A stretch of 64,000 nucleotides of DNA from Bacteroidota bacterium (GTDB taxonomy: Bacteria; Bacteroidota; Ignavibacteria; Kapaibacteriales; UBA2268), in assembly GCA_004322215.1 (NCBI GenBank), contig SCSM01000039.1, forward strand, positions 96,744-160,743, read 5' to 3'. A model generated the notes under the pieces. The model did no database searches, was not told where the DNA came from, and was given only the letters and a program-made list of their open reading frames with translations. Every line of letters starts with the position of its first letter. The stretch's first letter is position 1. A program made the position numbers and the translations under genes. Below are positions 17,656-42,718 of the stretch, piece after piece.

Positions 17656-17668
17656 ATTCCTTCCTTTT

Positions 17669-24575: not shown

Positions 24576-24603
24576 AGGGGTTTTGCCTGCAAGCAAAGCC
24601 CCT
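24576..24603 (-). terminator. Rho-independent terminator after the 95-aa minus-strand ORF
   Basis: 11-bp stem (AAGGGGTTTTGC / GCAAAGCCCCT) with a 6-nt loop, followed on the minus strand by a T-rich tract. Confidence 0.5.
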
Positions 24604-24638
24604 CAATAACTAATTCATATCAAAACAATAATTGGGAA

Positions 24639-24926: not shown

Positions 24927-25334
24927 TTTCTTACCTTTTTTTCCCTTTTTTAAAATAAATGCCTGGAATTTGGGGTTAGGTTATTTATATGATCTGTTAA
25001 TCAAGGGTTTTTGAGGACAATCCCAGGCATCTAAATTTCAAAAGTACAATTCTATTATCAATCACAAAGAAAATTGTATAATTTTCTAAAACTAAATAAC
25101 GGATTATTTGAAAAAAAGATTATAGTTGTAAACGTGATTTTTTTGTAGAAAATACGTGAAACTTTTTGTAGGATATTTTGCTCTGACAATGTAGCAATTA
25201 CTACTACAATTTATTATTTTTCAGTTATTTATGTATTCTTTTCCGATAATAAAAATATTCTAATTTTCTTATGATTAGGTGTAAAAATCGAGATATTTTA
25301 ATAATATCAATTTCAAATAATAATCCTAATAAAA

Positions 25335-27962
25335 TCAATAGATTAAAATTTTACCGGTCTTGTAATAACTATTTATGTTTATAAAATAAAAATATACACC
25401 GATTTCTAATTTTGAGCAATCTATAATAGTTATATTATTCCTTAGGTTTTTAGTCAATACTTTCCTTCCTGTCATGTCGTACATTACGAATTGAAAAATT
25501 AAATTATGAACTCCCGCATTGACGATAATTTTTTTATTTCCGCAATAATTAAATGTGATTCCCTTTTCAAAATCCTGTTCTATACCATTGGGTTTGACGG
25601 TAGTAAATTTCCAGGTATCGGACCAAGCACTTGAATCATTGTTGCCGAATGCTTTTACATGCCAATAATAGGATGTATTAAAAGCTAAATCATTATAGTT
25701 TAATTTAGCGGAATCAATTCCATTAACATTTAAAATATTATTTAGGAAATCGGGATAAATCGATAATTCGACATTATAGCTTGATGCATTCTCAGCATGC
25801 TCCCAAATCAGATAGCCATTCAAGGGTACATTACCAGAATCATTTATTGGTGAAATTAAAACCGGCGATGCAAGCGTCCTTGTTACTTCAGTGGTTAATT
25901 TGAAGGGAACTGACCATTCACTTTCATTATCGAAATTCATAGCTTTAATCCGCCAGAAATAAATCCTGCTGTTTTCAAGAATGGCTTGATTAAAGATTGT
26001 GTCGGTTATACCTGTTTCATCAGTTATTAGTGAGTCGAAATCCGGTGTCTTCGAAATGTTTATTTTATAGTAGGTTGCTCCTTCGACAGAATTCCATATA
26101 AATATTCCTTTAACTGAAAAATCATTATTCTCATCTAATGGATATTTCAACTCAGGAGATTTTAATAAAGTTGTAAAAGACCATGAATCTGACCAATTGC
26201 TTTCATTCTCATCATATAATGATTTCATACGCCAGAAATAAGTCGTATTATTTTTCAGTTGCTGATATTTGAAGGTTGTATCTGATGTAATTAATGAATC
26301 GATTAGAACTTTAGAAAAATCAATATTATTTGATATTTGTAATCTATATGAAACTGCACTGTCAATATTTTTCCAAACAAAATTCGGCGAAACAGTTATT
26401 TTCTTTGAATTATTTACAGGGGAAATCAGTAAGGGTGATTCATAAATTTGGGGCTCAGCAAGTATAAATTCACCGAATGTGCTAATGGATGCTTCGAGTA
26501 AACCTTGCTGAGCATTATAAGTAGTAGGTAATTCCTTGAAGTTCCCCATTCCTTCCTGTTGGCGCCAATAAATTTTATTTTTTTCCGGTGATTTGAGTGA
26601 GTCAATGGCTGATAATCTGAAAATGATTTTTCCTGTGAAGCCGGTAATTCCTTTATTATTTAGAACCCATCTATTGCCGTAAGTAATTAACGGAGGTAGA
26701 TTTTCGTATGAAACATTATGCGGTGAATAGTAATGTCTCTCAGTAGAAACATAACCGGAACCGGTCAGGGACTGAATGTTTAATTCAACGGCTGTATTAT
26801 TATCAGAATCGTTGAAATTAAAGTTACCGGAATTTTGCATAAATAAAATTTTTGATGCCATGATTATAGGATAACGCATAGCCATATAGGATTCCAAGTT
26901 TCTCGCTTCGATAGCTCTTGTACCGTCGGCTCTTACTTCGACAAAAGTCATTTGCTGCAGATTAGTACCCCAGCCGATTAATGTATTTCCATTGGGAAGC
27001 CGCTCAACACTACCTTGAGACATTGTATAAACTGAGGGGAATGGGTTATATTCCCAAACTTTGCGAATTGTTTTATTTACTTCATCTATTTCGTATTCTA
27101 CAGCTCTCGATTGCTGAAGAGGATTCATGTTCCCATTGTCAAACAACAGAATATTGCCGTTTGGCAACCTATGAACAGAGTGCTGATGCGAAAATCCCCA
27201 AAACCCGTCAATTGTATCATTTAAAAATGTAAATTGATTATTCTTGCATTTTTTTCCTCCAAGACGCCAAATAATATTTCCCGATTGCTTTTCTATTTTT
27301 GTTATTTCATCCAGGTTTCTTTCAGATATAAGCAAATTACCGTCTGAATCCACCTCAAAACTATTTATGTGTACCCATGCAATATTTTGTTGGGTCAGAT
27401 CTATATCAGAAGTTGCATCGGTTACCTGTAAATGGTCTAATGCATGCCATTCCCAAACAACATTTTTATTTTCATCCTGTTCCTGTAATGCAAAGGATAT
27501 TAATACGGCATCAGGTTTTCCTCCCGGATAGATTGAACTCATATCAACAGTATCATATTCAATTCCAAGGAGTAAACCATGTCCATTATTCAAAAGTTTA
27601 AAGTCATGGAAATCGGTTTCAAGTCCGTTCTTACATGCGAAACTGTCAAGTAAATCGAGATTACGGTCAACAACATAAAATTTATTTCTGGCAAAATAGC
27701 TTAACTTCACGTTTTCTTGTTGACTAAAACATCTTGCATTGACATTTCTCTCAATTCTTTTTTTAAATGCAATTTTACCCGAATTGTCAATTAATGTGAG
27801 ATAACCCTGCTGGTAAGAATCTAATAACAAATAACCTGGTGCTGGATTATCTAATGTAATTACTGTTAAGTCAAACTGTGAATATGATGGTAAAGTACTT
27901 ATAATTAAAATCAAACAAAAAATAATTACTTTATAAATATCCGATAATTTCTTTATTTTCAA
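25335..27962 (-). CDS. Secreted arylsulfotransferase (ASST)-like beta-propeller protein with 3 Fn3-like repeats and T9SS C-terminal domain (paralog 1)
   Basis: Signal peptide. ~470-aa beta-propeller with NPAPGYLLLD, FWGFSHQHSVHRLPNGNILLFDNGN and LPNGNTLIGWG motifs. Three ~95-aa repeats ending YFWR(M/I)K...WS..W.FTT. C-terminal sorting domain (...KTGKILIY). Confidence 0.5.
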   Translation of the reverse strand: MKIKKLSDIYKVIIFCLILIISTLPSYSQFDLTVITLDNPAPGYLLLDSYQQGYLTLIDNSGKIAFKKRIERNVNARCFSQQENVKLSYFARNKFYVVDRNLDLLDSFACKNGLETDFHDFKLLNNGHGLLLGIEYDTVDMSSIYPGGKPDAVLISFALQEQDENKNVVWEWHALDHLQVTDATSDIDLTQQNIAWVHINSFEVDSDGNLLISERNLDEITKIEKQSGNIIWRLGGKKCKNNQFTFLNDTIDGFWGFSHQHSVHRLPNGNILLFDNGNMNPLQQSRAVEYEIDEVNKTIRKVWEYNPFPSVYTMSQGSVERLPNGNTLIGWGTNLQQMTFVEVRADGTRAIEARNLESYMAMRYPIIMASKILFMQNSGNFNFNDSDNNTAVELNIQSLTGSGYVSTERHYYSPHNVSYENLPPLITYGNRWVLNNKGITGFTGKIIFRLSAIDSLKSPEKNKIYWRQQEGMGNFKELPTTYNAQQGLLEASISTFGEFILAEPQIYESPLLISPVNNSKKITVSPNFVWKNIDSAVSYRLQISNNIDFSKVLIDSLITSDTTFKYQQLKNNTTYFWRMKSLYDENESNWSDSWSFTTLLKSPELKYPLDENNDFSVKGIFIWNSVEGATYYKINISKTPDFDSLITDETGITDTIFNQAILENSRIYFWRIKAMNFDNESEWSVPFKLTTEVTRTLASPVLISPINDSGNVPLNGYLIWEHAENASSYNVELSIYPDFLNNILNVNGIDSAKLNYNDLAFNTSYYWHVKAFGNNDSSAWSDTWKFTTVKPNGIEQDFEKGITFNYCGNKKIIVNAGVHNLIFQFVMYDMTGRKVLTKNLRNNITIIDCSKLEIGVYFYFININSYYKTGKILIY

Positions 27963-28011
27963 TTAATCCACTTATTTTTTAATTTTACAAAATTATTTTT
28001 AATTGATTACC

Positions 28012-30633
28012 TCAATAAATTAATAACTTACCTTTAACGATACTATCGATTTGAATAATTGTATAAAAATAAATACCTCTTTCTAAATTATAACAATCAA
28101 TAATTGTCTTATAATCAGTTAAGATTCTTCTAAGAGTAATTCTCCCGGTAATATCGGCAATTATTAATTCCGTATTATTATTAAGATTTTCAATATTTAT
28201 AAATAATTTGTTATTACTTTCATTATAAATAATAAAATTATTTTCATTATCAGATACAACAGAACCATAATTTTGAGTTCTGAATTTCCACGTCACCGAC
28301 CAGGAACTTGTGTCAAATTGGTTAGAAGCTGCCACATGCCAATAATAAACTGTACTATAATTTAAATCAGAGTAATACATATTGGTTGAATTTATACCAA
28401 TTTGTGATATTTTTTTTACAATAAAATTTGAATCAATTGACAGTTCAATTTTATAAGACATTGCATTTTTAACCTGATACCAATAAAGAAAACCAAATAA
28501 AGGTATGTCTGTTGTATCGTTAGCAGGTGATTGTAAAATCGGTATATTCAGGACTTGATTTATTTCAGTCATGAATATATTTATATTAGACCAGGAACCT
28601 TCATTATTGGAATTTAATGGCTTAACACGCCAGTAATAATATTTGTTGAAATCCAGGGGAGTTAGAGGGCTGAATCTTGTGATAGTTACATCTGATTTAT
28701 TTACAACTATAGAATCGAAATCGGGGTCTAAGGATATATTAATTATGTATTTATCTGCTCCTGGTACTGAATTCCATTCAAATATTCCCTTAACTTGAAA
28801 TTCTGTTTCACGATTGGCTGGTTTAATCAATTCAGGTGTTTTCAACAAAGTAGTAAAAGACCATGGATTTGACCAATTTGTTTCATTACCGTTAGTAACA
28901 GATTTGAGTCTCCAATAATATATTTTATTATTTTCAAGTCCGGTTAATGCTAATGTTGTGTCTGCTGTCAATCCTGTGTCAACAAGGTTTACATTAAAAT
29001 TGATGTCAGTTGAAACCTGGAGTTTGTATGAATCGGCTCCGTTAAATTTATGCCATAATAAATATAAAATTATCGGATTCTTAGTTGAACTGTCTGCCGG
29101 AGATATTAACAATGATGTCTGAGAATCAAGTGGTACTCCTAAAATGAATTCTCCGAATGAAATTATATTAGCTTCGAGTGTCGACTGAGATTGATTATAC
29201 GTTGTCTCCAAAAGTGAAAATTTACCGCTGCCTTCCTGTTTACGCCAATAAATTTTATAATTCTTAAGTGAATCAGTACTGACAATTTCTGATAATTTGA
29301 ATATAATCTTAGCTGTTAATTGGCTTATACCTTTATTGTTTAATACCCATCTGTGTCCGTAAGTTTTTACAGGTGCTAATCCATCATAAGCTATGTTGTG
29401 TGGAACATAATCATGCCTTTCGACTGACACATAACCGGAATCCGTCAAACCATAAATGTCTAATAATACACCTGTTTTGTTACTTGTGTCTGAAAAGTTG
29501 TAAATTCCGGCATTCTGCACCATTATTAGTTTCGAAGCCATAATTATCGGATACCTCATTACCTGATAAGATGAAAAATTCTTTGCCTCCATTGCTTTCG
29601 AGCCGTCAGGCATAACTTCGGTAAAAGTAATCTGTTGAGTATTTGCTCCCCAACCAATAATTGTATTTCCGTTTGGAAGTCTTTGTACACTACCCTGAGT
29701 GATAGAATAAATATCCGGAGAACATCTGTATTCCCAAACTTTTTTTACAGTCTTGTTTACCTCATCGATTTCATATTCAACAGCACGTGAATATTGAATT
29801 GGTTTCAGATTTCCATTATCGAACAGAAGGAGGTTCCCGTTAGGGAGCAGGTGTATTGAGTGCTGGTGCGAAAATCCCCAGAAACCATCAATTGTATCAT
29901 TTAAAAAGGTGAACTGATTGTTCTTACATTCTTTACCGCCAAGACGCCAGATAATCGCACCTGTCTGCCTGTTAATTTTTGTTATTTCATCCAAATCACG
30001 GCTCGAAATGAGGACATTTCCATCATAATCAATTTCAATACTATTAGTATGGACCCATGACACATTTTGCTGAGTTAAGTCAACACTTGAAGTAGCATCG
30101 GTAACCTTATAGTGGTCTAAAGTATTCCATTCCCAAATGACATTTTTATTTTCATCCTGCTCCTGAATAACAGAAGACCTTAGTACAGCATTGGGTTTTC
30201 CCCCAGGAACAATTTCACTCAAATCGACAGTATCATACACATTACCCAGAAAAAATGCATTGCCGTCATTTGTTAGCTTAAAGTCGTGGGGATCAATCAT
30301 TAAAGAGTTTTTTATGACGAAACTATCGATAAGATTAAGACCATTATCAATCGCATAAAATTTTAAATTTGTATAGAATGTTAATAAATCATTCTTCTGA
30401 ATGTAAAGAACATCCCCTTTTTGGAAATTTTTCAATTTATCATTAATAACCGCAAATCCCGAATTATCAGTTATTGATAAATATCCATCCTCGAAGGTAT
30501 CCATTAAGAGATAACCTGGTGCAGGATTGTCGAGTGTTAATACTGTAATTTTATTTTGGGATAAAATTGAATAATTATTAATTATTAATAATAAAATTAT
30601 AAATAAATTAATATTTAAAAGATATTTTTGCAT
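28012..30633 (-). CDS. Secreted ASST-like beta-propeller protein with 3 Fn3-like repeats and T9SS C-terminal domain (paralog 2)
   Basis: Same architecture as paralog 1, with similar but clearly non-identical sequence (NPAPGYLLMD, FWGFSHQHSIHLLPNGNLLLFDNGN). Confidence 0.5.
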   Translation of the reverse strand: MQKYLLNINLFIILLLIINNYSILSQNKITVLTLDNPAPGYLLMDTFEDGYLSITDNSGFAVINDKLKNFQKGDVLYIQKNDLLTFYTNLKFYAIDNGLNLIDSFVIKNSLMIDPHDFKLTNDGNAFFLGNVYDTVDLSEIVPGGKPNAVLRSSVIQEQDENKNVIWEWNTLDHYKVTDATSSVDLTQQNVSWVHTNSIEIDYDGNVLISSRDLDEITKINRQTGAIIWRLGGKECKNNQFTFLNDTIDGFWGFSHQHSIHLLPNGNLLLFDNGNLKPIQYSRAVEYEIDEVNKTVKKVWEYRCSPDIYSITQGSVQRLPNGNTIIGWGANTQQITFTEVMPDGSKAMEAKNFSSYQVMRYPIIMASKLIMVQNAGIYNFSDTSNKTGVLLDIYGLTDSGYVSVERHDYVPHNIAYDGLAPVKTYGHRWVLNNKGISQLTAKIIFKLSEIVSTDSLKNYKIYWRKQEGSGKFSLLETTYNQSQSTLEANIISFGEFILGVPLDSQTSLLISPADSSTKNPIILYLLWHKFNGADSYKLQVSTDINFNVNLVDTGLTADTTLALTGLENNKIYYWRLKSVTNGNETNWSNPWSFTTLLKTPELIKPANRETEFQVKGIFEWNSVPGADKYIINISLDPDFDSIVVNKSDVTITRFSPLTPLDFNKYYYWRVKPLNSNNEGSWSNINIFMTEINQVLNIPILQSPANDTTDIPLFGFLYWYQVKNAMSYKIELSIDSNFIVKKISQIGINSTNMYYSDLNYSTVYYWHVAASNQFDTSSWSVTWKFRTQNYGSVVSDNENNFIIYNESNNKLFINIENLNNNTELIIADITGRITLRRILTDYKTIIDCYNLERGIYFYTIIQIDSIVKGKLLIY

Positions 30634-30776
30634 ATTAATGATTAGTATAAAAAATTTCTAATTTATATTTGATTAGCAAATGAATTCAATATAAAAAAAG
30701 ATTATATATATTTAAATTGATAATCATATATAATAAAATATTTAAAAATTAACTGCTTCATTTATATAGCTATTTA

Positions 30777-32840
30777 TCATCGTAAAATATAAATTTTCCC
30801 ACATACTGTACAATTTGAATATTGCATCCTATAAAAATAAATACCATTATTCAGATTATTAAATTTTATTTCACAAGTGTTTAAGAACGATATATTTATT
30901 GACGAAGCCATTTGTACCGGGTTACCTAAAATATCAAACAATGTGATATTAATTTGACCGGGATTGTTATTAATTTTTAAAATTAATCTGTCTTCATATT
31001 GAAAGACAGAAATATCAGATTGAATTATTTTATCATCAATTGTCGTTAATGGTATTGTGGTAAACATCATTGTTTCAGACCAGGAACTATGTCTCTCATC
31101 ATAAAATGCCATCACACGCCAATAATAAATTCGATTGTAATTCAAAATGACATCGAGATGATTATTGGTAATATTAGATGAATCAATTACTAATTCAGTA
31201 AATTCAGGGTTCAGTGATAGTTGGAGACGAAACTCCGAGGCAAATGAAACCGGCTGCCAAGTAATTTTTGTATTTATACTTACATCCTTTTCATTATTTG
31301 CAGGAGAAATCGTAATAGGTGCCATTATTGAGTCCGTCATTCCGATAATAAACTCACCGGTACTCTTAATTTTTGCTTCCAAGCAATTAAAGTTTGGGTT
31401 GTAAGTTGTCTTTAATTGTTCAAAGTTGCCATCACCTTCTTTTTGCCGGAAAAAGATACTTTCATAATATGATTCACTGGAAGAATAACCATATAGATAA
31501 AATCTGATTAGAGCATCTATATCATTGCCATTATTAGAGGAAAGCACCCATCTGTTATCAAATATCTCTGTAGGGTTTTGTCCTGAAAATATTAAATTAT
31601 GGGGTAAATAATCATGCTTTTCGATTGAAATCAATCTTGCATCTTTTATATTATTAATTTCTAATTTAACATCAGTAATATTAGTATCGGATGAGAAGTC
31701 ATAAATTCCGGGTTTATCGGCAAATAATGTTACAGCATGCATTTTGTATATGTATTTATAAACTGCATAATTCTGATAATCGCTAATTTCCAAAACTTTT
31801 TTCCCATCAGGAGTTACTTCTGTCGCCGTCAGATTGTCAGAATTCAAACCCCATCCAATCAGAGTATTCCCGTTAGGAAGCCGCTGAACATTACCCATAG
31901 AATAAGAATTAAAATCAGGGGATAAAGAATATTCCCACACCTTTTCTATTGTTTTATTTAACTCATCAATTTTGTACTCAACTGCTCTTGTGTAGGGTTT
32001 TGGTTTTAAATCTCCATTATCGAGCATGAGCAGATTCCCGTTTTGTAATCTTAGCACTGAGTGTTGATGCGAAAATCCATAAAATCCGTTTATTGTATCA
32101 TTAAGAAATCGAAATTGATTATTCTTACAAGTTGCACCGCCGAGACGCCAAATAATATTACCGGACTGCCTGTCTATTTTTGTAACTTCATCGAGAGCCC
32201 TGCTTGAAGCAATTATATTGCCATCCGTATCATAAAAAATGGAATTCATGTGACAGGATATAAAAGAATTTTGGTTAGTATCAATTCCCGGGACCATATC
32301 AGACAGTTTGAAATGGTCGAAAGAATTCCAATTAAATATTAAATTTTTATTTTTGTCAAATTCCTGAATGACATTGCCGATTACCTGTATATCTTTGTGT
32401 CCGCCCGGAATAATATTGCTTAAATCCATGAACCTGACTTCACGTCCTAAAATTGCCGTGTTACCGTTTGGTAGAAATTTTATATCATGGAAATCAACTT
32501 CATAATTACCAACACAATTAAAACTATCAATTAATTCATAACTATCATTCATAAGATAATACTTGTCTCTCGAGAAAAAACTAATCATTCCATTGGGTTG
32601 AACTTTAGGATTCAGAAATTCATCGAATTGTCTCAAAGTTTTTTCAAAAACCGGTTTACAGGTGTTATCAACTATATAAAACTTTTGGGAGTAATGAGGA
32701 GTTAAGAAAATATAACCGGGTGATGGATTATTATATAAATCTAACTTATACGGAGGCGTTGTTTGAGCAAATAAATGACAAACCAATATTAAAAACACAA
32801 ATACATGAGAAAAAACTGTCTTCATTTCAAAAAACCTCAA
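30777..32840 (-). CDS. Secreted ASST-like beta-propeller protein with 1 Fn3-like repeat and T9SS C-terminal domain (paralog 3)
   Basis: NNPSPGYIFL, FYGFSHQHSVLRLQNGNLLMLDNGD and LPNGNTLIGWG motifs. The start is probably the internal MKTVFSHVFVFLIL signal peptide. Confidence 0.5.
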   Translation of the reverse strand: MRFFEMKTVFSHVFVFLILVCHLFAQTTPPYKLDLYNNPSPGYIFLTPHYSQKFYIVDNTCKPVFEKTLRQFDEFLNPKVQPNGMISFFSRDKYYLMNDSYELIDSFNCVGNYEVDFHDIKFLPNGNTAILGREVRFMDLSNIIPGGHKDIQVIGNVIQEFDKNKNLIFNWNSFDHFKLSDMVPGIDTNQNSFISCHMNSIFYDTDGNIIASSRALDEVTKIDRQSGNIIWRLGGATCKNNQFRFLNDTINGFYGFSHQHSVLRLQNGNLLMLDNGDLKPKPYTRAVEYKIDELNKTIEKVWEYSLSPDFNSYSMGNVQRLPNGNTLIGWGLNSDNLTATEVTPDGKKVLEISDYQNYAVYKYIYKMHAVTLFADKPGIYDFSSDTNITDVKLEINNIKDARLISIEKHDYLPHNLIFSGQNPTEIFDNRWVLSSNNGNDIDALIRFYLYGYSSSESYYESIFFRQKEGDGNFEQLKTTYNPNFNCLEAKIKSTGEFIIGMTDSIMAPITISPANNEKDVSINTKITWQPVSFASEFRLQLSLNPEFTELVIDSSNITNNHLDVILNYNRIYYWRVMAFYDERHSSWSETMMFTTIPLTTIDDKIIQSDISVFQYEDRLILKINNNPGQINITLFDILGNPVQMASSINISFLNTCEIKFNNLNNGIYFYRMQYSNCTVCGKIYILR

Positions 32841-32960
32841 GCAAAATAATTATGCTTCAATGTAAATATATAATACCTACGTAATCGTTTTTTATATTAT
32901 TACTTCTTACTTATAGTAATAACTGTTTTTTTTCAATTTTGTTACAGAGATTTTTTTCAA

Positions 32961-33497
32961 TTAAATTATTTCATTGTTTTTTAAATAACTTAATACTACC
33001 CTAACGCAATCATCGGGTGACTTATTTTCTGTATTAATCATAATGTCGGGATTCTCCGGCTTTTCATAAATTGAATCGATTCCGGTAAAATCAATAATCT
33101 CTCTGATTCTTGCTTTTTGATAAAATCCTTTCGGGTCTCTTTTTTCGCATACATCAAACGGAGTGTTTACGAAAACTTCAACGAAATGAAAATCAGACAA
33201 TATGCTCCTCGCCGACTGCCTATCCTGTATGAATGGTGAAATTAATGCACAAATGGCATTAACACCTGACAATGCCACAAGTTTTGCCATTTCTGCTGTC
33301 CTGCGAATGTTTTCTTTCCTGTCTTCATCGCTGAAACCCAAATCTTTACTTATTCCTTTACGCATGGTATCACCATCGAATAAAACCGAGGAAACCCCCC
33401 TGGTTAGTAATGCTCTTTTCAAATGCTCGGAAACGGTGGTTTTCCCACTTGCCGAAAGCCCTGTGAACCAAATAACAAATGGTTTTTTATTTTCCAT
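32961..33497 (-). CDS. cysC: Adenylyl-sulfate (APS) kinase
   Basis: 178 aa. P-loop (FTGLSASGKTT). APS-kinase core (DGDTMRKG ... RRTAEMAKL ... ALISPF). Makes PAPS from APS. Confidence 0.85.
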   Translation of the reverse strand: MENKKPFVIWFTGLSASGKTTVSEHLKRALLTRGVSSVLFDGDTMRKGISKDLGFSDEDRKENIRRTAEMAKLVALSGVNAICALISPFIQDRQSARSILSDFHFVEVFVNTPFDVCEKRDPKGFYQKARIREIIDFTGIDSIYEKPENPDIMINTENKSPDDCVRVVLSYLKNNEII

Positions 33498-33500
33498 ATC

Positions 33501-34583
33501 TTAATTTAAAAAAGTGTTATATATATTAGAGTAATCGTTTCTTATTCTTTCTTCAGTCAATCCAAATTGTTCAAGTGAATATTTATGACCGCTTTTGTGA
33601 CTTCTTTGCTTTTCGGCAGTAGAATTTATTTTGTTTAAAAGTTCGGCTGATTCATAAACATTTATAAAATTCAATATTTCATGCATCTCTATTTCGAATT
33701 CATTCATCATCCTGTCGTATCTGACTATTTTAATTTTTTCTTTAGGAAATTTCCCATTAACATAATCATCATGGAAACGAGTACTTAATTCCAGCAATGC
33801 AGAGTAAAGCCGTTCTATATAAAAATCCCTTTTGTTTTTCGGAAGTTTCCAGAATCCGAATCTTCCGTCGAGAACACCAGTTACGAGACTCAAGCCGGAA
33901 GGTACTGTTTCCAGTGGGTCTCTTAATGTATATAATATTTTAGCATCGGGAAAATATTCCAGGAACTTCGGTAATCGCACCCCAAGCGAAAATAATTTAC
34001 CGATAATCTGTTCATGATTTTCGCTTATTAAATTCCGTTTCCAAATTTTTTCAAACCATTTAAAGTCACGTTTGGAAGTATCCCTGATATTTGGGTCAAA
34101 ATATGTACTTAAATCTTCTTTTGCCCAGGCAAGAAAAAAACCGTAAACAAAAAAATCGTCAAAGAAATGGAAAAGCAATGAGGGGTCATCAGTTTCGATT
34201 GCCCTCAGATTTGTTTCGTGTGCAGCATGAGAATGGAATCGTGCGGGACTAATCTTTTCCATTAATGTAACAAATGGCTTGAAAATAAATTGAAGTGTCA
34301 ATGAAGGAAACAACATTTTCCATAGCTGCATTCCGACACCAATTTTTTGGTTAACCAGAAATCTCTGTAAAAAAGTTGTGCCGCTGCGGGGATTTCCGAC
34401 AATGAAAACAGGATTATTGATTTTTTTTCCTGACAATGACGGATAAAATAAATTATCGAGAATCATTCCAACGTTTACAATCAGTCTTAGAAAGAGCAAG
34501 CCGCTATAGGTGAATAAAGGTGCAAACGGTTTATGAAATGTTGAAACGATTGAAAAATATGACCTGAACATATTTCTTAACAT
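33501..34583 (-). CDS. PAPS-dependent sulfotransferase family protein (Sulfotransfer_3-like)
   Basis: 5'-phosphosulfate-binding loop (IVGNPRSGTTFL). 3'-phosphate-binding RDP motif (TLRDPLETVPS). 360 aa, with a hydrophobic N-terminal segment. 3-nt gap to cysC. Confidence 0.7.
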   Translation of the reverse strand: MLRNMFRSYFSIVSTFHKPFAPLFTYSGLLFLRLIVNVGMILDNLFYPSLSGKKINNPVFIVGNPRSGTTFLQRFLVNQKIGVGMQLWKMLFPSLTLQFIFKPFVTLMEKISPARFHSHAAHETNLRAIETDDPSLLFHFFDDFFVYGFFLAWAKEDLSTYFDPNIRDTSKRDFKWFEKIWKRNLISENHEQIIGKLFSLGVRLPKFLEYFPDAKILYTLRDPLETVPSGLSLVTGVLDGRFGFWKLPKNKRDFYIERLYSALLELSTRFHDDYVNGKFPKEKIKIVRYDRMMNEFEIEMHEILNFINVYESAELLNKINSTAEKQRSHKSGHKYSLEQFGLTEERIRNDYSNIYNTFLN

Positions 34584-34595
34584 GTGTGCCTCATT

Positions 34596-35564
34596 TCAAA
34601 ACCTAAATAATGTAAAAGCAACGGACAAACCGGCACCTGTTCCGCCTAAAATGCACAAATCACCACGGTTAATTTTACCAGCTTTATGATAGATAGCCAA
34701 TGTCAACGGAATAGAAGCAGCAATGCAATTTCCATATTCTCTAATAATGTTGGCGACCTTTTCCATCCTGAACCCGTATAATTCTGCAGCTTCCACAGCG
34801 TGGCCTGATGCCTGATGCGGTATAAGCCAGTCAATATCTTTTGCTTTCAATTTATTTCTATCAAATAATTCTTTCAATGATTTTTTCACGCTACCTAAAG
34901 CAAACCTGTACACTTTTGAACCTTGCATCGTGAATAAATTATCTTCTGGTTTGGTTAATGTCGGATGGTCAGGTGGATGCTTAGTACCTCCACCACGAAA
35001 TTCTGTCAATTCAGCACCTTTGGGCCATGTGTTCATTTGCCAATCCAACAAAGCACTCGATTCATCCTTCGGAGTCGGTTCAATAACAACAGCAGCTGCG
35101 GCATCGCCGAAAAGTGATGCACTTTCGGGTTCATTCAAATTTCTCCAATGAGTGCCGGTTTCAGAAGATACAATCAAAATACGTTTGAATGTTCCGCCCT
35201 GAATCAATGCAGCAGCAGTATTCAAAGCGACAACAAATGAAAGGCATGTGGAATGGATTGACCATGAAGGAATTCCTTCATATCCTAATGCTCTTTGTAT
35301 GAAAACCGAACTGTCGGGAATTAATTGCAAGGGTGTAGTTGAGGCGTTAATAATGCAATCAGGAGAAGGACCTCCATTTAATGCCTGACTGGCAGCTTTT
35401 GCTGCTATCACATCCATCGGCTCTTCTGCAATTCTTCTTTCAGATATTCCTGTTCTCGATATAATCCATTCTTCACTTTGACCGATTAATTCAGCGAGGT
35501 CCGCAGATGTCTGAATACGTGGGGGAATATAAAACCCCGTAGAAACTATTTTTATGTTATACAT
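34596..35564 (-). CDS. FabH-like beta-ketoacyl synthase III / thiolase-fold condensing enzyme
   Basis: 322 aa. FabH-type N-terminus (VSTGFYIPPRIQTSADLAELIGQSEEWIISRTGI). Cys-His-Asn triad context (IHSTCLSF; IPHQASGHAVE; YGNCIAASIP). 12-nt gap to the sulfotransferase gene. Confidence 0.7.
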   Translation of the reverse strand: MYNIKIVSTGFYIPPRIQTSADLAELIGQSEEWIISRTGISERRIAEEPMDVIAAKAASQALNGGPSPDCIINASTTPLQLIPDSSVFIQRALGYEGIPSWSIHSTCLSFVVALNTAAALIQGGTFKRILIVSSETGTHWRNLNEPESASLFGDAAAAVVIEPTPKDESSALLDWQMNTWPKGAELTEFRGGGTKHPPDHPTLTKPEDNLFTMQGSKVYRFALGSVKKSLKELFDRNKLKAKDIDWLIPHQASGHAVEAAELYGFRMEKVANIIREYGNCIAASIPLTLAIYHKAGKINRGDLCILGGTGAGLSVAFTLFRF

Positions 35565-35626
35565 TCAATTACACTCTTAGTCAATTTTAAATTATTGTCG
35601 TATGATTACATTATTATCACATTCCG

Positions 35627-38167
35627 TCATTTTATTATTACAATTTTTCCTGTCATTGAATTAATTCCGTAATTTATCCGGTAAATGTAATTACCGCTCT
35701 CAAGTGCTGATGCATCCCATTCAATATTATTATTTCCTGCCGTAAGAAATCCCTTGAAAACCACGGATGATTCCCTGCCGAACATATCATAAATTTTAAT
35801 GGTTGTTTCACAATTTCTATCAATTTTGAATTTGAATTTAATTCTATGATTGGCTGGATTTGGATAATTTATCGTTTCAATATTGTTATCTTTATCATCT
35901 GATTCATTGACTCCGGTAGGAGCTAATTTTATAGTAAAGTCAGAATCGCTTTCCGTATAAAATGAACTGTTTTTAAGACTAATTATCTTAATTCTGTAGG
36001 TTGAATCAACTGGTACATTTTTTGGAATTTTCCATGCATAAGCGTTTGTATAGCTGAATAAAGTATCTTCTATAACAGTCTGTTTTATTCCATTTCTGAA
36101 AAGAGTAATTGAAACTGAATCAGGGAGATTGGTTTTCCATCGAATAATGTTGGACACAGTGTCAATAAACCATGTTTCACCCCCGTTGGGTGTTACGAGT
36201 TCAATTAAAGGTTCTTTCAATGAAAAACTGTGAATATCCGACCAATCACTTGCCAATTCATTATAAATTGTTTTTGTTCTCCAATAGTAAGTTTTATTAC
36301 TCTCAAAATTTTCTTTTACTATTGGTGTTTTGATTTCAGAATTATCAATTATATTTTTTGTGAATAGCGAATCATCTGAAACCTGTAATTGAGATTTATC
36401 ATATCTGCCGGTTGGACTCCAGATAAGTTTAACAGGTTCGCTATCGATTAAAACCTGTTTGTCAATTGGTGACAAAAGAGACGGGGGTAAAATTTCATTC
36501 CCGTTTCTTTTGAAACCGATTACAAATTCACCATGGTCTGATATATTTGCCACAACCTGGTCTGTATTCTCATCGAAGTGTGATGATAGTTCGGTGAAAG
36601 TACCGGATGCTTCAGTTTGTCTATAATATATCTTCAGGTTGTCAGGGTTAAACCGTGGTGGTAGTTCTTTAAAATCAAATCTAATTTCTCCATCGAATGA
36701 TAAAATTTCCTGGATATCAATTACAAATCTGCATGGCATTAAAACCGGAGCTTCACCAAAGAAGTTTACATTAATCGGAGGACAGTCAAACTTTTTCACA
36801 TTAACAGTATTGTATAAAAATCCATTTAACTTATTAAAGTAGATTTCGACCCCTGTCTTTTCGTTGTTATTATCAAATTTATAAGTATTTAATTCCACAA
36901 CTTCAATTTTATCAACATTAGCAACAGCAAGGCATAAAGGGAACTCATATTTTGAAGCTCTGTAACTAAAAGCATCAGATGGCAGAGATAATTCATAAGC
37001 AATTTTATTATCGGGTGTAACTTCAGTAATCGTTCTGTGAAAACCACTAAAAATCAAACCCCAGTTAATTAAAGTATTGCCATTAGAAAGTCTTTGTGCC
37101 GAACCCATAGCATATCCTGATATATCAGGTGTATGCCTGAATTCCCAAACTAATGAAGCGGTCTTATTAGTTTCATCGAGTGAATATTCAACTGCTCTTG
37201 AATACCATGGGATTTTATATGGACCATTATCATAAAACAGGAGATTTCCATTGTCGAGCCGTTTTACATCATGCTGCATGGAAAAATAATCCGGTGCATT
37301 TTCTTCATGTTCACCTGAAATATTAAAATCATTTTTTAGACCGCCCAATCTCCATAAAATTTTTCCTGAGACCATGTCAATTTTAATTATCTCGGCAGTA
37401 GCCACAAGACTTACAATCAGGTTACCATCGGTATCAAGGTAAAGAGAACTAACATGAGCATGTTCAAATGAAGCATTCTTCAGATTATCCCTCGAATCAG
37501 TTATCGGATAATGGTCTAAACTTCTCCATTGGAAAACACAATTTTTATTATTGTCCAATTCCTGGATTACAGTACCTATCACTTTTGCATTAGGATTACC
37601 ACCTTCAATTACTCTGCTCATATCAATATAATTATTATCATAACTTATCAATAAGTAATGACCATTTGGTAACATTTGAAACTCATGAAAATCTGCAAGG
37701 TATCCGTTTTGCATCTGAACAGAATCAATAATAGTGAATGAAGAATCCAAAATATAATTGATTACATTAAAATTTTGAATCATTAATGGTCCTGACTGGG
37801 TACCTGTTCCTATGAAGGAAGGGCTTGCATAAGAGAATAATCCGTTAGGTTCCGGCTTGAAATCAATACCTGCAATTTGTGGCTTGTTATAATAATATGG
37901 ACTACCTGTGCTATCGAGGACTAAAATATAAAAAATTGATTTTGTAACACCGAGGTTTTCCATGAAAATAAGCCCACGTGCCGGATTGTCTGATGTATTT
38001 ACTGTGATTGAAGGGAAGTCTGCTGGTAGTGTATCAGTTGTTGCGGTTAATAAAGATGGTTCTGTCAATCCGTATTTATCAAAATTGTACACTTCTGATT
38101 TTGCATGGAATACTTGTGTACTTAACAGAATTGCAGATAACATCACACACCTGATACTCGTCATCAT
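35627..38167 (-). CDS. Secreted ASST-like beta-propeller protein with 2 Fn3-like repeats and T9SS C-terminal domain (paralog 4, divergent)
   Basis: DNPARGLIFM, SMQHDVKRLDNGNLLFYDNG and LSNGNTLINWG motifs. Fn3-like repeats (YYWRTKTIYN...WS). C-terminal domain (NYPNPANHRIKFKF...KIVIIK). Confidence 0.45.
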   Translation of the reverse strand: MMTSIRCVMLSAILLSTQVFHAKSEVYNFDKYGLTEPSLLTATTDTLPADFPSITVNTSDNPARGLIFMENLGVTKSIFYILVLDSTGSPYYYNKPQIAGIDFKPEPNGLFSYASPSFIGTGTQSGPLMIQNFNVINYILDSSFTIIDSVQMQNGYLADFHEFQMLPNGHYLLISYDNNYIDMSRVIEGGNPNAKVIGTVIQELDNNKNCVFQWRSLDHYPITDSRDNLKNASFEHAHVSSLYLDTDGNLIVSLVATAEIIKIDMVSGKILWRLGGLKNDFNISGEHEENAPDYFSMQHDVKRLDNGNLLFYDNGPYKIPWYSRAVEYSLDETNKTASLVWEFRHTPDISGYAMGSAQRLSNGNTLINWGLIFSGFHRTITEVTPDNKIAYELSLPSDAFSYRASKYEFPLCLAVANVDKIEVVELNTYKFDNNNEKTGVEIYFNKLNGFLYNTVNVKKFDCPPINVNFFGEAPVLMPCRFVIDIQEILSFDGEIRFDFKELPPRFNPDNLKIYYRQTEASGTFTELSSHFDENTDQVVANISDHGEFVIGFKRNGNEILPPSLLSPIDKQVLIDSEPVKLIWSPTGRYDKSQLQVSDDSLFTKNIIDNSEIKTPIVKENFESNKTYYWRTKTIYNELASDWSDIHSFSLKEPLIELVTPNGGETWFIDTVSNIIRWKTNLPDSVSITLFRNGIKQTVIEDTLFSYTNAYAWKIPKNVPVDSTYRIKIISLKNSSFYTESDSDFTIKLAPTGVNESDDKDNNIETINYPNPANHRIKFKFKIDRNCETTIKIYDMFGRESSVVFKGFLTAGNNNIEWDASALESGNYIYRINYGINSMTGKIVIIK

Positions 38168-38209
38168 TTCTTACTCCTCAAAGCTATAAATCTATTTCCA
38201 TTTTTAAAA

Positions 38210-41071
38210 TTATCTGGTTACACTCATTTTTCCAGAATATGTTCTTCCATTCACATTCAATTGGTAAATGTATATACCTGGCTTCAAATTTGAAATATCA
38301 TAATCAATTATGTATGTTCCGTTCAGTAGTTCAAAATTAAATAAATCTTCAATATTTCTACTATTCAAATCGAAAATTAGCAGATTAACTTTTGAAAATT
38401 TATTAAGATAAAATTTGAAAGATGTTTTATAATCAGCCGGATTCGGATAGTTTTGATACAATATGACATCTTCATCATTATATGTTATCTCATTTTCGAC
38501 ATTTAAAACAGGTGATACGGAGAACTTACCGCTTTCACCAAAGATTTGACTATTATATTTACTTGTAATGACAATCGAATAATTCGAATCATAAGGAAGC
38601 GATTGAGGAATCAACCAGGAATAAGCTCCAATCTGACTCAGGAGTGAATCTTTAATGAGCTGGTAATATTTGCCGTTTTTGAATAATTCTAATTTAACTG
38701 TATCATCAATGTTTTTTTTCCAACGAATGATATAATAAAGAGTATCACGATAAATTGCTTCACCTTCTGCCGGATTTGTAATTTCAATGAATGGTGGCGA
38801 AAGAGTAAAGCTCCATGTTTCCGACCATTCGCTCACACCAGCTTCATTAATACATTGGACTTTCCAAAAATATTTTTGACCCTGATTCAGCTTCAAAATA
38901 TTTAATGTGAATACTTTTAAATTTGTATCAATGATAATTCCAGATGAAAATGTTGAATCAGTTCCGACAACTAAATGTGAACTTTTGCTGTAACCTTTTG
39001 TTGTCCAGTTTAATTGAACAGTTGAATTTTGGTTAACACTGTAATTATTCAATGGACTTATTAATTTTGGAGGTAGCGGTTTTTGTGAAAATTCGGGTAT
39101 GCAGAAAATGAAATCGCCGAAATTATCTGTGTTTACAATAAGTTCGTTTGACGATGGGTCATAAAGTGTCGAAAGTTGTTTATAATATATTGATGTATCG
39201 TTTGGTTTATTATAGATAACTAATTCCTGTAACCTGTTCAAATCCGGAAAATCAGCCACATTAAATCTGATTTCACATTCAACCGAATCAATCATAGTAG
39301 TAGTCATCTTTACCCTGTAAGGAAATACAAGCGGTGCTTTATCTTCAAAGACCGGTTTGATAGGCCCACACTCATATCTTTCTGCCTTCAATCCATTATA
39401 AAGAAATCCGACAAGCTTTTTAAATTTTATAATAATGCCGATGTTATCTTCATGCAGTGGATATGTATTGCCTTCGAGGAGCTCATAAATGGTGACCTGG
39501 ATGGGCTCGCATGAAGGCCAGGGATATTTCAGAACTTTCATTGAGTGCTGACCTGATGGAAGTGAAAATTCCATCGCAATAGTATTATCAGGATGAAGTT
39601 CTGTTGCAGTTATTTCTTCATTCTCAGAGTGCTGCCCCCACGAAATCAATTTTCCACCATTTTCAAGTACCTGGAATGAACCATCTGCATAAGAATAAAT
39701 ATCTGGATTATGCCTGTACTCCCAAATAAGTTCACAGGTTTTATCCGATTCATCCAATTTATATTCCACAGCTCTCGAATATTGAATATCGTGCTGTTTC
39801 CCGTTATCAAATAAAGTTATGTCCCCGTTTTGCAATCTTTGTACATGATTCTGGTACGAGAAATAGTTTGGTGCATTTTCTTCGTGTTCACCAGTGAAAG
39901 TAAAATCGTTATTCCTGCCTCCGAGTTTCCACATAATCTCACCGGTTTCCCTGCTCACTTTAATAATATTGCTCAAATTACTATTTGACAAAAGAAGGTT
40001 TCCATCAAAGTCAAGAACAATGTTATCTGTGTGAATATAATCCACAATCTGAGTAGTCAGTGATTCATAGGTTTCAGTTACCGGGATATAATCGTTAGAC
40101 CTCCAATTGAATACAACATTATTATTTTTGTCGAACTCCTGAATAACTGAAAATTGCAAATATCCGTTTGGATTTCCTCCGGGTGTAATCAAGCTAAAAT
40201 CATAAGGTATTATGTTGTAAGATAATAAAATTCTATGGCCATTCGACAAAAGGAGAACATCGGCATTAACAGATGAATTTTTATCGGCACCAACTATACT
40301 ATCAACTGATTGTAAATTATTATTCAGAATAATAACTTTTGTTGAATTATCGTCGAACAACTGATGAACAATCTGACCATTTGTTTCACGCTTGAAATTA
40401 AAAGCAATTCCATTAGTTTGAGCACCAATTTTCTTATAAGCGGCAATTTTACCCGTATTATCAAGTAGTATAAGATAATTTGAATAATTCGATTTGACTC
40501 CATAATCGGGAATATTTGTCAGGTAATAATAACCGGGAGCAGGATTTTCAGAATAATTTGTCTTAATAAAAGGGAAATCTGAAGGCAAAGAATCATCATT
40601 TAATAAAAAAAAGTTCTCCGGTGTAAAGTCTCTATCCCTAATTTCACATTCTTTACTTATATTATCGCAATTGAGAGGCACAGTCAACGGCGAAACAAAA
40701 AAACGAAATGAAAAAGGATCGAGTTCGTTACCCGAAAGTGTCTTCACACCGGAGTTAAAATTAATTACAACAGTTTCACCAGCCGTAAACGGAATATTTG
40801 GTTTGAAAACTATTGTTTTATTGTCGTCAGAAAAATTAAAACCCCCTTCATGTTTACCCGATTTATTTCCAATAACAGAAATGGTATTTATGCTTAGTGT
40901 TTTTAAATCTATTTTTTCTTTGTATCTAAATATTAAATTTGTTTTATTGTAATTATTGCGTGATTCGGGAAGCGGATATAAATATTGATAAGAACAAATT
41001 TCGGAATATAATTTTAATTCAACGAATATTAAAAGAATTAATATTACATTAAATAATTTCATATTGCACAC
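38210..41071 (-). CDS. Secreted ASST-like beta-propeller protein with extra N-terminal Ig-like domain, 2 Fn3-like repeats and T9SS C-terminal domain (paralog 5, divergent)
   Basis: ENPAPGYYYLTN, SYQNHVQRLQNGDITLFDNG and LENGGKLISWG motifs. Additional ~150-aa N-terminal beta-sandwich. C-terminal domain (YQNYPNPADYKTSFKF...KMSVTR). Confidence 0.45.
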   Translation of the reverse strand: MCNMKLFNVILILLIFVELKLYSEICSYQYLYPLPESRNNYNKTNLIFRYKEKIDLKTLSINTISVIGNKSGKHEGGFNFSDDNKTIVFKPNIPFTAGETVVINFNSGVKTLSGNELDPFSFRFFVSPLTVPLNCDNISKECEIRDRDFTPENFFLLNDDSLPSDFPFIKTNYSENPAPGYYYLTNIPDYGVKSNYSNYLILLDNTGKIAAYKKIGAQTNGIAFNFKRETNGQIVHQLFDDNSTKVIILNNNLQSVDSIVGADKNSSVNADVLLLSNGHRILLSYNIIPYDFSLITPGGNPNGYLQFSVIQEFDKNNNVVFNWRSNDYIPVTETYESLTTQIVDYIHTDNIVLDFDGNLLLSNSNLSNIIKVSRETGEIMWKLGGRNNDFTFTGEHEENAPNYFSYQNHVQRLQNGDITLFDNGKQHDIQYSRAVEYKLDESDKTCELIWEYRHNPDIYSYADGSFQVLENGGKLISWGQHSENEEITATELHPDNTIAMEFSLPSGQHSMKVLKYPWPSCEPIQVTIYELLEGNTYPLHEDNIGIIIKFKKLVGFLYNGLKAERYECGPIKPVFEDKAPLVFPYRVKMTTTMIDSVECEIRFNVADFPDLNRLQELVIYNKPNDTSIYYKQLSTLYDPSSNELIVNTDNFGDFIFCIPEFSQKPLPPKLISPLNNYSVNQNSTVQLNWTTKGYSKSSHLVVGTDSTFSSGIIIDTNLKVFTLNILKLNQGQKYFWKVQCINEAGVSEWSETWSFTLSPPFIEITNPAEGEAIYRDTLYYIIRWKKNIDDTVKLELFKNGKYYQLIKDSLLSQIGAYSWLIPQSLPYDSNYSIVITSKYNSQIFGESGKFSVSPVLNVENEITYNDEDVILYQNYPNPADYKTSFKFYLNKFSKVNLLIFDLNSRNIEDLFNFELLNGTYIIDYDISNLKPGIYIYQLNVNGRTYSGKMSVTR

Positions 41072-41350
41072 TCCCTAAAACCATTCTTCATGCTAATGAC
41101 TGTTTATGTTCTTAATAATTGGCAATTAATGAAATATTAACCAGTAATCATATAATTGTTATTGTGATTTTTTTGTAGGATAATATATATTAAATATGTA
41201 ATAGTCAATACTATTAAATATGTAGTAATTCATAATTTTAGATGTAAAGTTAAATACTACATATAAAAATTTTTAAAACATTATTAATTTAAAATATATT
41301 TCTGAAACATTATGTAAATTTTTACGTTTATTGTAAATTTATATTGTTAA

Positions 41351-42718
41351 ATGTTCAAAAGGGTAAAATCACGAATGAAGAATGAATTCAAAATAAGTAT
41401 TTTATTAGCATCGGTTCTATTATTTTTAACTGTCAGTAATTCTTTTTCTGCAAACTTTAATCCGATAAAGTTTGTCAGGGATTCACTGCCAAACGGCTTG
41501 CAGATTATTTATACTGTGGACAAGACAGCCCCAGTGATATCAACAATTTTACATTATCGAGGCGGCTCCCGGGACGAAGTAAAGGGGAAAACCGGCTATG
41601 CCCATTTTTTTGAGCATTTGATGTTCGAAGCAACAAGGGATATTCCACGAGCCACGATTGATAAAATGGTGCAGGAAGCCGGAGGTAAACTTAATGCCCA
41701 TACATCATGGGATGAAACTGTATTTTTTTTCCAGTTACCTGCAAATCAGCTTAAATTGCCTTTGTGGATTGAATCTCAAAGAATGAGAATGTTGAAAATT
41801 GATTCTGTCGGTGTAGCAACACAGAAGGGGGTTGTACGCGAAGAATTGAAAATGAGAACATTAAATCAGCCATATGGTACGCTGATACAGAAAATTTCTG
41901 AGAATATGTTCCCGGGCTCGACATACGGCTGGGCAACTGTGGGATTTGATGAAGACTTAGAAAAAGCGACTATTGATGACTTTAAACAATTCTATGATAA
42001 GTATTACCAGCCAAACAATGCATGTCTCGTTATTGCAGGGGATTTCAATATTGACACAGCAAAGAAATATGTCAGACAATATTTCGGTGCATACCAGAAA
42101 GCAAAAGAATCGGAACACATAGGTTACCAAACGAATCCACTCGAAAAAGATTATAATGAAACAATAAAAGATACAAAAGCACAGGTTCCTGCAGTCTTCA
42201 TTGGCTTCAGAGGTCCAATGCTTGCCGAACCGGATTATTATCCTGTATCCTTATTTATGGATATAATTTCAAGTGGAGAAAGCTCGAGGTTGAATCAACG
42301 GCTTGTGGAAAAAGACAGAATAGCAGTCAATGCCGCCGGCATACAGTTAAGCTTGCAATATACCGGTGCCTTGATCCTGATTGGCATTGGCTTTCCTGAT
42401 AAAGACATTAAAGATGTCGAAGAAACTTTGTTGGATGAAGTGAATGAGGTTATAAGCGATGGCATAACAGATGAAGAATTGCAGAAAGCAAAAAACATCA
42501 AGGAATCGCAATTTGTAGGCGACAAGAAAAATGTCTTACCGAAAGCAGAATCACTTGCCCAGTATTTCAGTTATTATGGAAATCCGTCGCTCATAAATTC
42601 ACAGATAGATAATTATCTTTCTGTTACGAAAGAGCAAGTTATAAAAGCAGCAAAGAAGTATTTCTCATCTGCAAAAAAAGTTGTTTTGACATATATACCC
42701 GATAACGGAACAAAATAA
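41351..42718 (+). CDS. M16 family zinc peptidase (insulinase-like, catalytic)
   Basis: HxxEH inverted zinc motif (GYAHFFEHLMFEATRD). Signal peptide. 455 aa. Confidence 0.75.
   Translation: MFKRVKSRMKNEFKISILLASVLLFLTVSNSFSANFNPIKFVRDSLPNGLQIIYTVDKTAPVISTILHYRGGSRDEVKGKTGYAHFFEHLMFEATRDIPRATIDKMVQEAGGKLNAHTSWDETVFFFQLPANQLKLPLWIESQRMRMLKIDSVGVATQKGVVREELKMRTLNQPYGTLIQKISENMFPGSTYGWATVGFDEDLEKATIDDFKQFYDKYYQPNNACLVIAGDFNIDTAKKYVRQYFGAYQKAKESEHIGYQTNPLEKDYNETIKDTKAQVPAVFIGFRGPMLAEPDYYPVSLFMDIISSGESSRLNQRLVEKDRIAVNAAGIQLSLQYTGALILIGIGFPDKDIKDVEETLLDEVNEVISDGITDEELQKAKNIKESQFVGDKKNVLPKAESLAQYFSYYGNPSLINSQIDNYLSVTKEQVIKAAKKYFSSAKKVVLTYIPDNGTK

Follow-up and report, generated by a model that had tools for sequence, protein, structure and literature searches.

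An array of five arylsulfate sulfotransferase-family paralogs with type IX secretion signals and an embedded ketosynthase, sulfotransferase and APS kinase trio: a candidate cytoplasm-to-surface sulfuryl relay

Here we describe a cluster of eight co-oriented genes (25335-41071, minus strand) within a 64,000-nucleotide stretch of contig SCSM01000039.1 (hereafter the window) from a Bacteroidota bacterium placed among the Ignavibacteria. In this cluster, five paralogous proteins related to arylsulfate sulfotransferases (ASSTs), P1 to P5, enclose a trio of genes encoding a ketosynthase (KS), a sulfotransferase (ST) and an adenylyl-sulfate (APS) kinase (CysC). We are highly confident that P1-P5 are ASST-family proteins exported via a type IX secretion system (T9SS). 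With modest confidence, leaning only slightly in its favour, we interpret the eight genes from their sequences and arrangement as one sulfation system, a two-step relay that would carry sulfuryl groups from the cytoplasm to the cell surface. Public data contain many paralog arrays of this kind, and the most interesting content of the cluster is the embedded trio, putatively for donor synthesis.

Intergenic gaps in the cluster range from 3 to 143 bp, and the positions of the open reading frames (ORFs) bear out the five co-oriented paralogs of 687-953 aa that an earlier, sequence-only reading of this DNA had described. P1 (25335-27962, 875 aa), P2 (28012-30633, 873 aa) and P3 (30777-32840, 687 aa), all on the minus strand as are the other members, are canonical ASST paralogs that NCBI carries as 'hypothetical protein' (EPN82_15165 to EPN82_15175). 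They are separated by three further minus-strand genes (32961-35564) from P4 (35627-38167, 846 aa), an ASST paralog of what we call the 'QHD' type, and from the ASST-like P5 (38210-41071, 953 aa). A scan of positions 24400-41500 for promoters and terminators gave no useful signal, with 117 promoter-like sites where shuffled sequence has 91 +/- 9, and 9 terminator-like sites where it has 8, so that operon structure is read from orientation and short gaps only. The ~1 kb downstream of P1 (24338-25334) contains no ORF of at least 100 aa and is very AT-rich (GC 0.28 for 24001-26000).

Membership of the five proteins in the ASST family, as proposed in the sequence-only reading, was upheld by both Pfam models of the family, each of which all five match far above cutoff. 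Scores against Arylsulfotrans (PF05935, cutoff 24.2 bits) were 121.5 for P1, 119.3 for P2, 116.5 for P3, 83.3 for P4 and 55.8 for P5 (E-values 5e-35 to 5e-15), and those against PF14269 (cutoff 27) were 61-83 bits. The beta-propeller fold is nearest to solved ASSTs rather than to unrelated propellers, and the closest solved relative is Cpz4 of the caprazamycin pathway, PDB entry 9KF4 having been recognised as Cpz4 through Foldseek. Pairwise identities (54% for P1-P2, 41% for P1 or P2 with P3, 37% for P4-P5, and 31-34% across the two groups) agree with the proposed division into three mutually close paralogs and a divergent pair.

The modular architecture was likewise as described, with one correction. 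Instead of a single ~470-aa propeller, P1 contains a propeller of ~345 aa (aa 30-375, 26838-27875) followed by a beta-sandwich of ~130 aa (aa 376-505, 26448-26837). These are preceded by a signal-like N-terminus (aa 1-29, 27876-27962) and followed by three Fn3-like repeats (aa 506-800, 25563-26447) and a T9SS C-terminal sorting domain (CTD; aa 801-875, 25338-25562). P1 and P2 each contain three copies of the repeat motif YYWR..WS..W.F, and P3, P4 and P5 a single copy, within the one to three per protein expected. P5 has a signal-like N-terminus, the additional N-terminal Ig-like domain previously noticed in it (Big_5, aa 33-122, E 3.9e-5), a propeller at approximately aa 170-530, then a single Fn3-like repeat and an Ig domain of Kre9_KNH-like type, and finally a CTD at aa 875-949.

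Catalytic competence was evaluated against E. coli ASST, in which His252, His356, Asn358 and Arg374 are active-site residues and His436 forms the sulfohistidine (PMC13426309). A single-sequence phmmer search of PDB with P1 aligned only 78 residues of the E. coli enzyme, so a family profile was needed to place the other active-site residues. The five align with H119, H198, N200, R215 and H261 of P1. The equivalent of His436 is the second histidine of the FSHQHS motif in P1 (27177-27194, containing the nucleophile His261), P2 (29857-29874) and P3 (32058-32075), and the histidine of FSMQHD in P4 (37268-37285). While P1-P3 keep all five residues and P4 keeps the three histidines, P4 has Ser and Val in place of Asn358 and Arg374, and P5 (FSYQNH, 39845-39862) has Ala, His, Asp, Ser and Asn at the five sites, having lost three of the four auxiliary residues and replaced the nucleophile by Asn. 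The catalytic histidine previously taken as conserved in the array is thus found in P1-P4 and not in P5. Because P5 has lost its nucleophile and P4 lacks the Asn358 and Arg374 equivalents, the supposed five sulfotransferases are probably three canonical enzymes, one altered enzyme and one likely inactive protein. The equivalent of Thr501 is conserved neither in P1-P5 nor in Cpz4, the alignment being uncertain at that site.

Among 89 ASST ORFs of related loci, almost all keep the nucleophile histidine and 25 show exactly the residue pattern of P1-P3; as judged from alignment, conservation of these sites at 30-50% overall identity indicates selection for catalysis. These counts, together with the intact sites of P1-P3, make it very improbable that the propellers are mainly non-catalytic proteins of an adhesin family, used for surface binding or adhesion. 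Such a role would accord with the Ig- and Fn3-type modules, typical of surface proteins, on all five paralogs and with the substitutions in P4 and P5, and for P5 taken by itself its residues make a non-catalytic adhesin role likely. The paralog in the P5 position evolves fast. Its nucleophile has changed from His to Asn both in the window (AHDSQNHR at the aligned sites) and in one related locus (L008, 3949-6372; NNNAQNHR), and the counterpart in another (L009, 3426-6311; CHNRPHHR) retains His and Arg, which suggests that catalysis may have been lost recently in some lineages.

Export of the five proteins is predicted from both termini. Their N-termini are hydrophobic and signal-peptide-like (maximum 15-residue Kyte-Doolittle mean of 1.85-2.65), whereas by the same measure KS (0.49) and CysC (0.84) are not signal-like, and none of the three embedded genes encodes a signal peptide. 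The CTD assigned to all five in the sequence-only reading was detected with unequal strength. Against PF18962 (cutoff 27 bits) P4 scored 42.7, P5 28.5, P3 27.1, P1 23.2 and P2 18.6, and against TIGR04183 (cutoff 23) the values were 40.7 for P4, 27.0 for P5, 22.3 for P3, 19.3 for P1 and 18.4 for P2. P4 and P5 therefore exceed both cutoffs and P3 lies at the Pfam cutoff; P1 and P2 fall below, although their tails can be aligned with the others over the full length and the P1 tail matches a solved CTD (8glj, E 9e-4). Because Sec-type N-termini are combined with T9SS C-terminal domains, P1-P5 should end up at the cell surface or outside the cell. No core T9SS genes were identified in the 64-kb window. 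It does encode three more proteins with a Por_Secre_tail domain, namely a small protein (55-795, plus strand), a WD40-like propeller (22973-24337, plus strand) and a 922-aa protein with a GH20b domain (47783-50551, minus strand), for a total of eight T9SS-type cargo genes in 64 kb. The presence of these three further CTD-bearing proteins suggests that a T9SS is in use in this organism.

The trio embedded between P3 and P4 had been termed a PAPS-pathway operon, PAPS being 3'-phosphoadenosine 5'-phosphosulfate. What is encoded is not a complete pathway but an APS kinase, a PAPS-type sulfotransferase and a beta-ketoacyl-ACP synthase III (KAS III)-like protein, and no ATP sulfurylase was found among window ORFs of at least 120 aa. 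CysC (32961-33497, minus strand, 178 aa) is a clear APS kinase, converting APS to PAPS (TIGR00455, 219.5 bits; cutoff 138.7). ST (33501-34583, minus strand, 360 aa) belongs to the Sulfotransfer_3/_1 group (Sulfotransfer_3, E 8.8e-18) and contains a 5'-phosphosulfate-binding motif, GNPRSGTT (aa 63-70), and a 3'-phosphate-binding motif, RDP (aa 221-223), both invariant among its orthologues, with a conserved hydrophobic stretch (aa 22-45) ahead of the catalytic domain. Its matches in PDB are only marginal, to mycobacterial sulfotransferases (Stf, E 0.007). ASSTs are PAPS-independent (PMC13426309), so the PAPS genes support the ASST assignment only indirectly and not, as had been argued, independently; the chemical connection would exist only through a relay of the caprazamycin type.

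KS (34596-35564, minus strand, 322 aa) matches the KAS III models ACP_syn_III and ACP_syn_III_C. Its best solved relatives are MxnB (8.6e-52) and CorB (1.4e-50) of myxopyronin and corallopyronin synthesis, with which it shares an insertion (aa 173-212 of KS) that is not present in Aquifex FabH. We rejected its assignment as a housekeeping FabH, given that it falls below the NCBIfam cutoffs (PRK07204, 245.2 against 402; PRK09352, 241.4 against 249; TIGR00747, 222.8 against 292.1) and forms its own orthogroup, the members of which are 50-84% identical to KS, as compared with ~30% for the ordinary FabH-like genes in related loci. DarB-type dialkylresorcinol synthesis was also considered and set aside, NCBIfam matches being weak, partial and far below cutoffs (E 1e-10 and 3e-6).

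Co-occurrence of ST and ASST genes extends well beyond the window. Scanning one genome per species with the ST alignment yielded 80 loci, in which genes were taken as six-frame ORFs and searched by phmmer. An ASST was present in 66 of these loci, and in 37 of the 44 that have at least 5 kb on both sides of ST it lies within 10 kb. By record label, all 20 Marinimicrobia loci, six of seven Gammaproteobacteria/Pseudomonadota loci and all three KSB1 loci contain an ASST. ST itself is a tight orthogroup (52-81% identical across phyla), and KS orthologues occur in 37 loci, directly upstream of ST in 26 and 2-5 kb downstream in the remaining 11.

The arrangement of ST, flanked by ASSTs in the window, takes several forms elsewhere. 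Ignavibacteria bacterium GWB2_35_12 has a layout like that of the window (ASST, KS, ST, CysC, then five ASSTs), and in a KSB1 locus three ASSTs precede KS and ST and another two follow, each of the ASSTs bearing a CTD. In loci of the FCB group, a 'QHD'-type ASST like P4 stands directly upstream of KS-ST. In one locus (L013, 9019-20083) a single co-oriented run begins with KS, ST, CysD and a CysN/CysC fusion, continues with the four genes of a sulfate-type ABC transporter (those for the binding protein, two permeases and the ATPase) and ends with an ASST of 840 aa that bears Kre9_KNH and CTD domains. This record and two others (L014 and L015) are labelled 'uncultured Hyphomicrobiales', which is likely a binning or labelling error because of the T9SS sorting domain and a 63-66% ST identity to an Ignavibacteria-like genome. 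In the gammaproteobacterium Ketobacter (L005 and L056), KS-ST adjoin an ASST whose signal is lipoprotein-like, and an acyl-AMP ligase/acyl carrier protein comes next. This ASST (L056, 11233-12492, minus strand) consists of the propeller only (419 aa, N-terminus ..LLVGIGGC..); the Ketobacter ASSTs have Pro at the Arg374 position (pattern HHNP[SA]HAR), and the protein after the triad combines FAAL-like AMP-binding and acyl carrier domains.

Marinimicrobia-type loci have an MMPL transporter and two conserved, exported or outer-membrane-looking proteins near ST, for none of which a homologue was found in the window. In the representative locus (L068, 5041-17239) the order is MMPL transporter, divergent 507-aa ASST, ST, 195-aa protein, 516-aa protein, KS orthologue, a leucine-rich-repeat protein with CTD, and an ASST with CTD; ~40 other ST loci, mostly from Marinimicrobia, share this type of neighbourhood. 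The 195-aa protein has a signal-like N-terminus and the 516-aa protein, which ends in ..KYFF, has the look of an outer-membrane barrel, neither being matched by Pfam. By phmmer, the MMPL transporter was counted in 27 loci, the 195-aa protein in 42 and the 516-aa protein in 39.

PAPS is confined to the cytoplasm. In the relay that we propose, CysC would supply PAPS there, KS would build a lipid-like enol or phenol from acyl thioesters, a 4-hydroxy-alpha-pyrone being the most plausible product, and ST would sulfate this product with PAPS. The activated sulfate ester would then leave the cytoplasm, and the ASST paralogs would load its sulfuryl group onto their active-site histidine and hand it on to different acceptors outside the cell, probably glycans. 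The paralog array would be explained if a single donor supplied several acceptor enzymes that had diversified, and the five to seven diversified ASSTs observed per KS/ST pair fit such a scheme of one donor with many acceptors. The MMPL transporter and the pair of exported-looking proteins that accompany ST in Marinimicrobia-type loci suggest that a lipid is exported. By analogy, a glycan acceptor is suggested by the preference of Cpz4 for sugar hydroxyls (PMC13426309) and by CBM_4_9 domains on homologues from KSB1 and Phycisphaerales. One solitary ASST gene with CTD (P0119; L089, 10001-19631) lies directly upstream of genes for polysaccharide export and synthesis (Wzz and a Polysacc_synt flippase), a weak hint that some family members may act on exopolysaccharide.

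Several observations count against this relay. We infer every step of it, as well as the identity of the KS product, from gene context and sequence, and the window encodes no exporter for the carrier. KS does not belong to the type III polyketide synthase (PKS) class, the Pfam scan having reported no match of KS to the chalcone/stilbene synthase model, and in PDB scores it stands only modestly apart from ordinary FabH (179 against 154 bits). The automatic JGI name for ST orthologues points to Stf3, an enzyme that sulfates an aliphatic alcohol, and an alkyl sulfate would be a poor ASST donor. The 80 loci are not phylogenetically independent, only one of the seven ST loci labelled Polyangia/Deltaproteobacteria contains an ASST, and the chance of finding an ASST in a 20-kb window, a few percent if a few ASSTs per genome were placed at random, is an estimate and not a computed control. 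Furthermore, when sampling was centred on ASSTs from long contigs (three ASST genes on long contigs and three P4-like homologues, one of them from a complete Phycisphaerales genome), none of the six loci had ST or KS within 10 kb. The linkage is therefore one-way, most ASSTs of the family using another donor or relying on genes elsewhere. The notion that the whole family of T9SS-exported ASSTs depends on an adjacent donor module was dropped on the same six loci.

These six loci would also be expected if the two sets of genes had independent functions, the ASSTs shuffling sulfate among environmental aryl sulfates and phenols, KS-ST-CysC making an unrelated sulfated lipid or metabolite, and the two being neighbours through shared regulation or use at the surface. 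Shuffling of this kind has been proposed for the periplasmic E. coli ASST and for the Phocaeicola vulgatus lipoprotein BvASST, and characterised ASSTs accept many phenolic donors and acceptors, an endogenous donor being known only for Cpz4 (PMC12809581, PMC13426309). The Stf3-like label of ST orthologues would fit a sulfolipid product, as would the proximity of ST to MMPL transporters, which are known lipid exporters. We nevertheless consider independence unlikely, since an ASST within 10 kb in 37 of 44 fully flanked loci, in differing gene orders, is hard to explain without a functional tie. The linked loci span Ignavibacteria, KSB1, Marinimicrobia, Gammaproteobacteria and one alphaproteobacterium, an ASST ends the run of KS, ST, sulfate-activation and sulfate-transport genes in L013, and the nearest solved relative, Cpz4, is the sole ASST known to have an endogenous PAPS-derived donor.

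The direction of transfer must also be weighed, as the KS product could be the acceptor rather than the donor. Extracellular ASSTs would then load it from environmental sulfated organics, either for sulfur scavenging or to form the very sulfated lipid that ST produces intracellularly with PAPS. The ping-pong reaction of ASSTs is in principle reversible and works between phenols (PMC13426309), and a single carrier with several ASSTs could equally represent many donors and one acceptor. Reversal is, however, quite improbable, in that the clusters invest in PAPS synthesis, and L013 also in sulfate uptake, which points to an outward flow of activated sulfate, and neither ST nor CysC would be needed for scavenging. 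Returning to the outward relay, a broader version of it is tentative and on balance doubtful. It holds that several phyla possess a dedicated sulfuryl carrier, either membrane-permeant or exported, in the form of an alkyl-pyrone-like lipid that a KAS III and a PAPS sulfotransferase make and sulfate. Such a carrier would bring activated sulfate from the cytoplasm to secreted or surface ASSTs, for the sulfation of glycans or other extracellular molecules, as a general route of extracytoplasmic sulfation and the natural ASST donor.

The closest precedent is caprazamycin biosynthesis in Streptomyces sp. MK730-62F2, which employs the same logic of ketosynthase, PAPS sulfotransferase and ASST. As recounted both in PMC4257720 and in PMC4924298, with reference to Tang et al. 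(2013, Nat Chem Biol 9:610), the type III PKS Cpz6 produces triketide pyrones, the PAPS-dependent Cpz8 sulfates them, and Cpz4 uses the pyrone sulfates as donors. We liken ST to Cpz8, and set KS apart from Cpz6, by description. In place of the type III PKS, the array has an MxnB/CorB-like KAS III that matches Pfam ACP_syn_III. Its ASSTs are multi-domain, present in five copies and equipped with Sec and T9SS signals, so that the relay would have to cross the envelope. There is no nearby antibiotic gene cluster or defined acceptor, and the module is spread over many uncultivated phyla rather than belonging to one actinomycete pathway. What is new relative to caprazamycin, of which the logic is known, is the different class of ketosynthase, the multi-copy extracytoplasmic ASSTs and the wide spread in uncultivated phyla.

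Other systems share single components with the array. MxnB and CorB, as well as PpyS/PyrS, resemble FabH and form a 4-hydroxy-alpha-pyrone by joining two acyl chains (PMC5724707, PMC5506619, PMC4578411). By comparison, KS is encoded by a free-standing gene that lies near no PKS assembly line, its formation of a pyrone is a prediction, and the diagnostic residues compared are those of the Cys-His-Asn region. The periplasmic AssT of E. coli CFT073 (PDB 3ELQ), encoded together with DsbL/DsbI, is only 19% identical, and its N-terminal beta-sandwich is absent here, the beta-sandwich of P1 following the propeller. The array has no Dsb partner genes, its products carry signals for T9SS export as opposed to periplasmic retention, and it alone of the two has the embedded trio. 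BvASST of Phocaeicola (Bacteroides) vulgatus, in which the sulfohistidine was demonstrated by mass spectrometry (PMC12809581), is likewise an ASST of the same superphylum targeted outside the cytoplasm. It is, however, encoded by a single-copy gene, has a lipoprotein signal, lacks a T9SS CTD and belongs to the E. coli-like cluster (PMC13426309); linked KS/ST genes are not reported for it. Mycobacterial sulfolipid systems (Stf with MmpL) also use a Sulfotransfer_3-type enzyme, presumably on a lipid, recalling the MMPL genes beside ST in 27 related loci. They contain no ASST, the window contains no MMPL, and the similarity of ST to Stf is marginal.

The sequence-only reading had further held that the array was not a described system. 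This is true to the extent that in the literature searched, which left out most subscription journals, no paper was found that deals with T9SS domains in ASSTs, with a module of KAS III, ST and ASST, or with a sulfuryl carrier other than that of the Cpz system. Proteins combining ASST and T9SS CTD domains are, on the other hand, very common in public data, with more than 3,000 matches among the candidates scored, many of them already named 'aryl-sulfate sulfotransferase' by NCBI.

With regard to the surroundings, the nearest relatives of the ASST cluster are Ignavibacteria, and the gene for the WD40-like protein with CTD as well as a cupin gene (21729-22055) are syntenic with three Ignavibacteria loci (L002-L004). 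A flagellar cluster (5433-18094, minus strand) encodes FlgE, FlgD, FliK, the FliI ATPase, FliH, FliG, FliF and rod proteins. NCBI labels this metagenome-assembled genome 'Bacteroidetes bacterium', but a flagellated, Ignavibacteria-like organism is the better fit. At 818-4325 (minus strand) lies a heterodisulfide-reductase-like pair composed of an FlpD/ferredoxin/FAD protein (744 aa) and an FAD oxidoreductase (423 aa). A pair with the same sizes and order occurs ~5 kb from an ASST gene with CTD in an unrelated 618-kb contig (L088, 1611-5116), a recurrence that probably reflects synteny between relatives.

Outside the caprazamycin pathway, the physiological sulfate donors of ASSTs are unknown (PMC12809581, PMC13426309). 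The pairing, in many phyla, of extracytoplasmic ASSTs with two cytoplasmic genes that could make a donor turns the question of the natural donor into a testable one. Should the relay prove wrong, what is left is an ordinary, if well-supported, annotation of an enzyme family that is common and uncharacterised. If it is correct, it would explain how sulfation can proceed outside the cell without PAPS, would provide new donor/enzyme pairs for biocatalytic sulfation, and would bear on sulfated polysaccharides and on the cycling of organic sulfur by abundant uncultivated Marinimicrobia, Ignavibacteria and KSB1.

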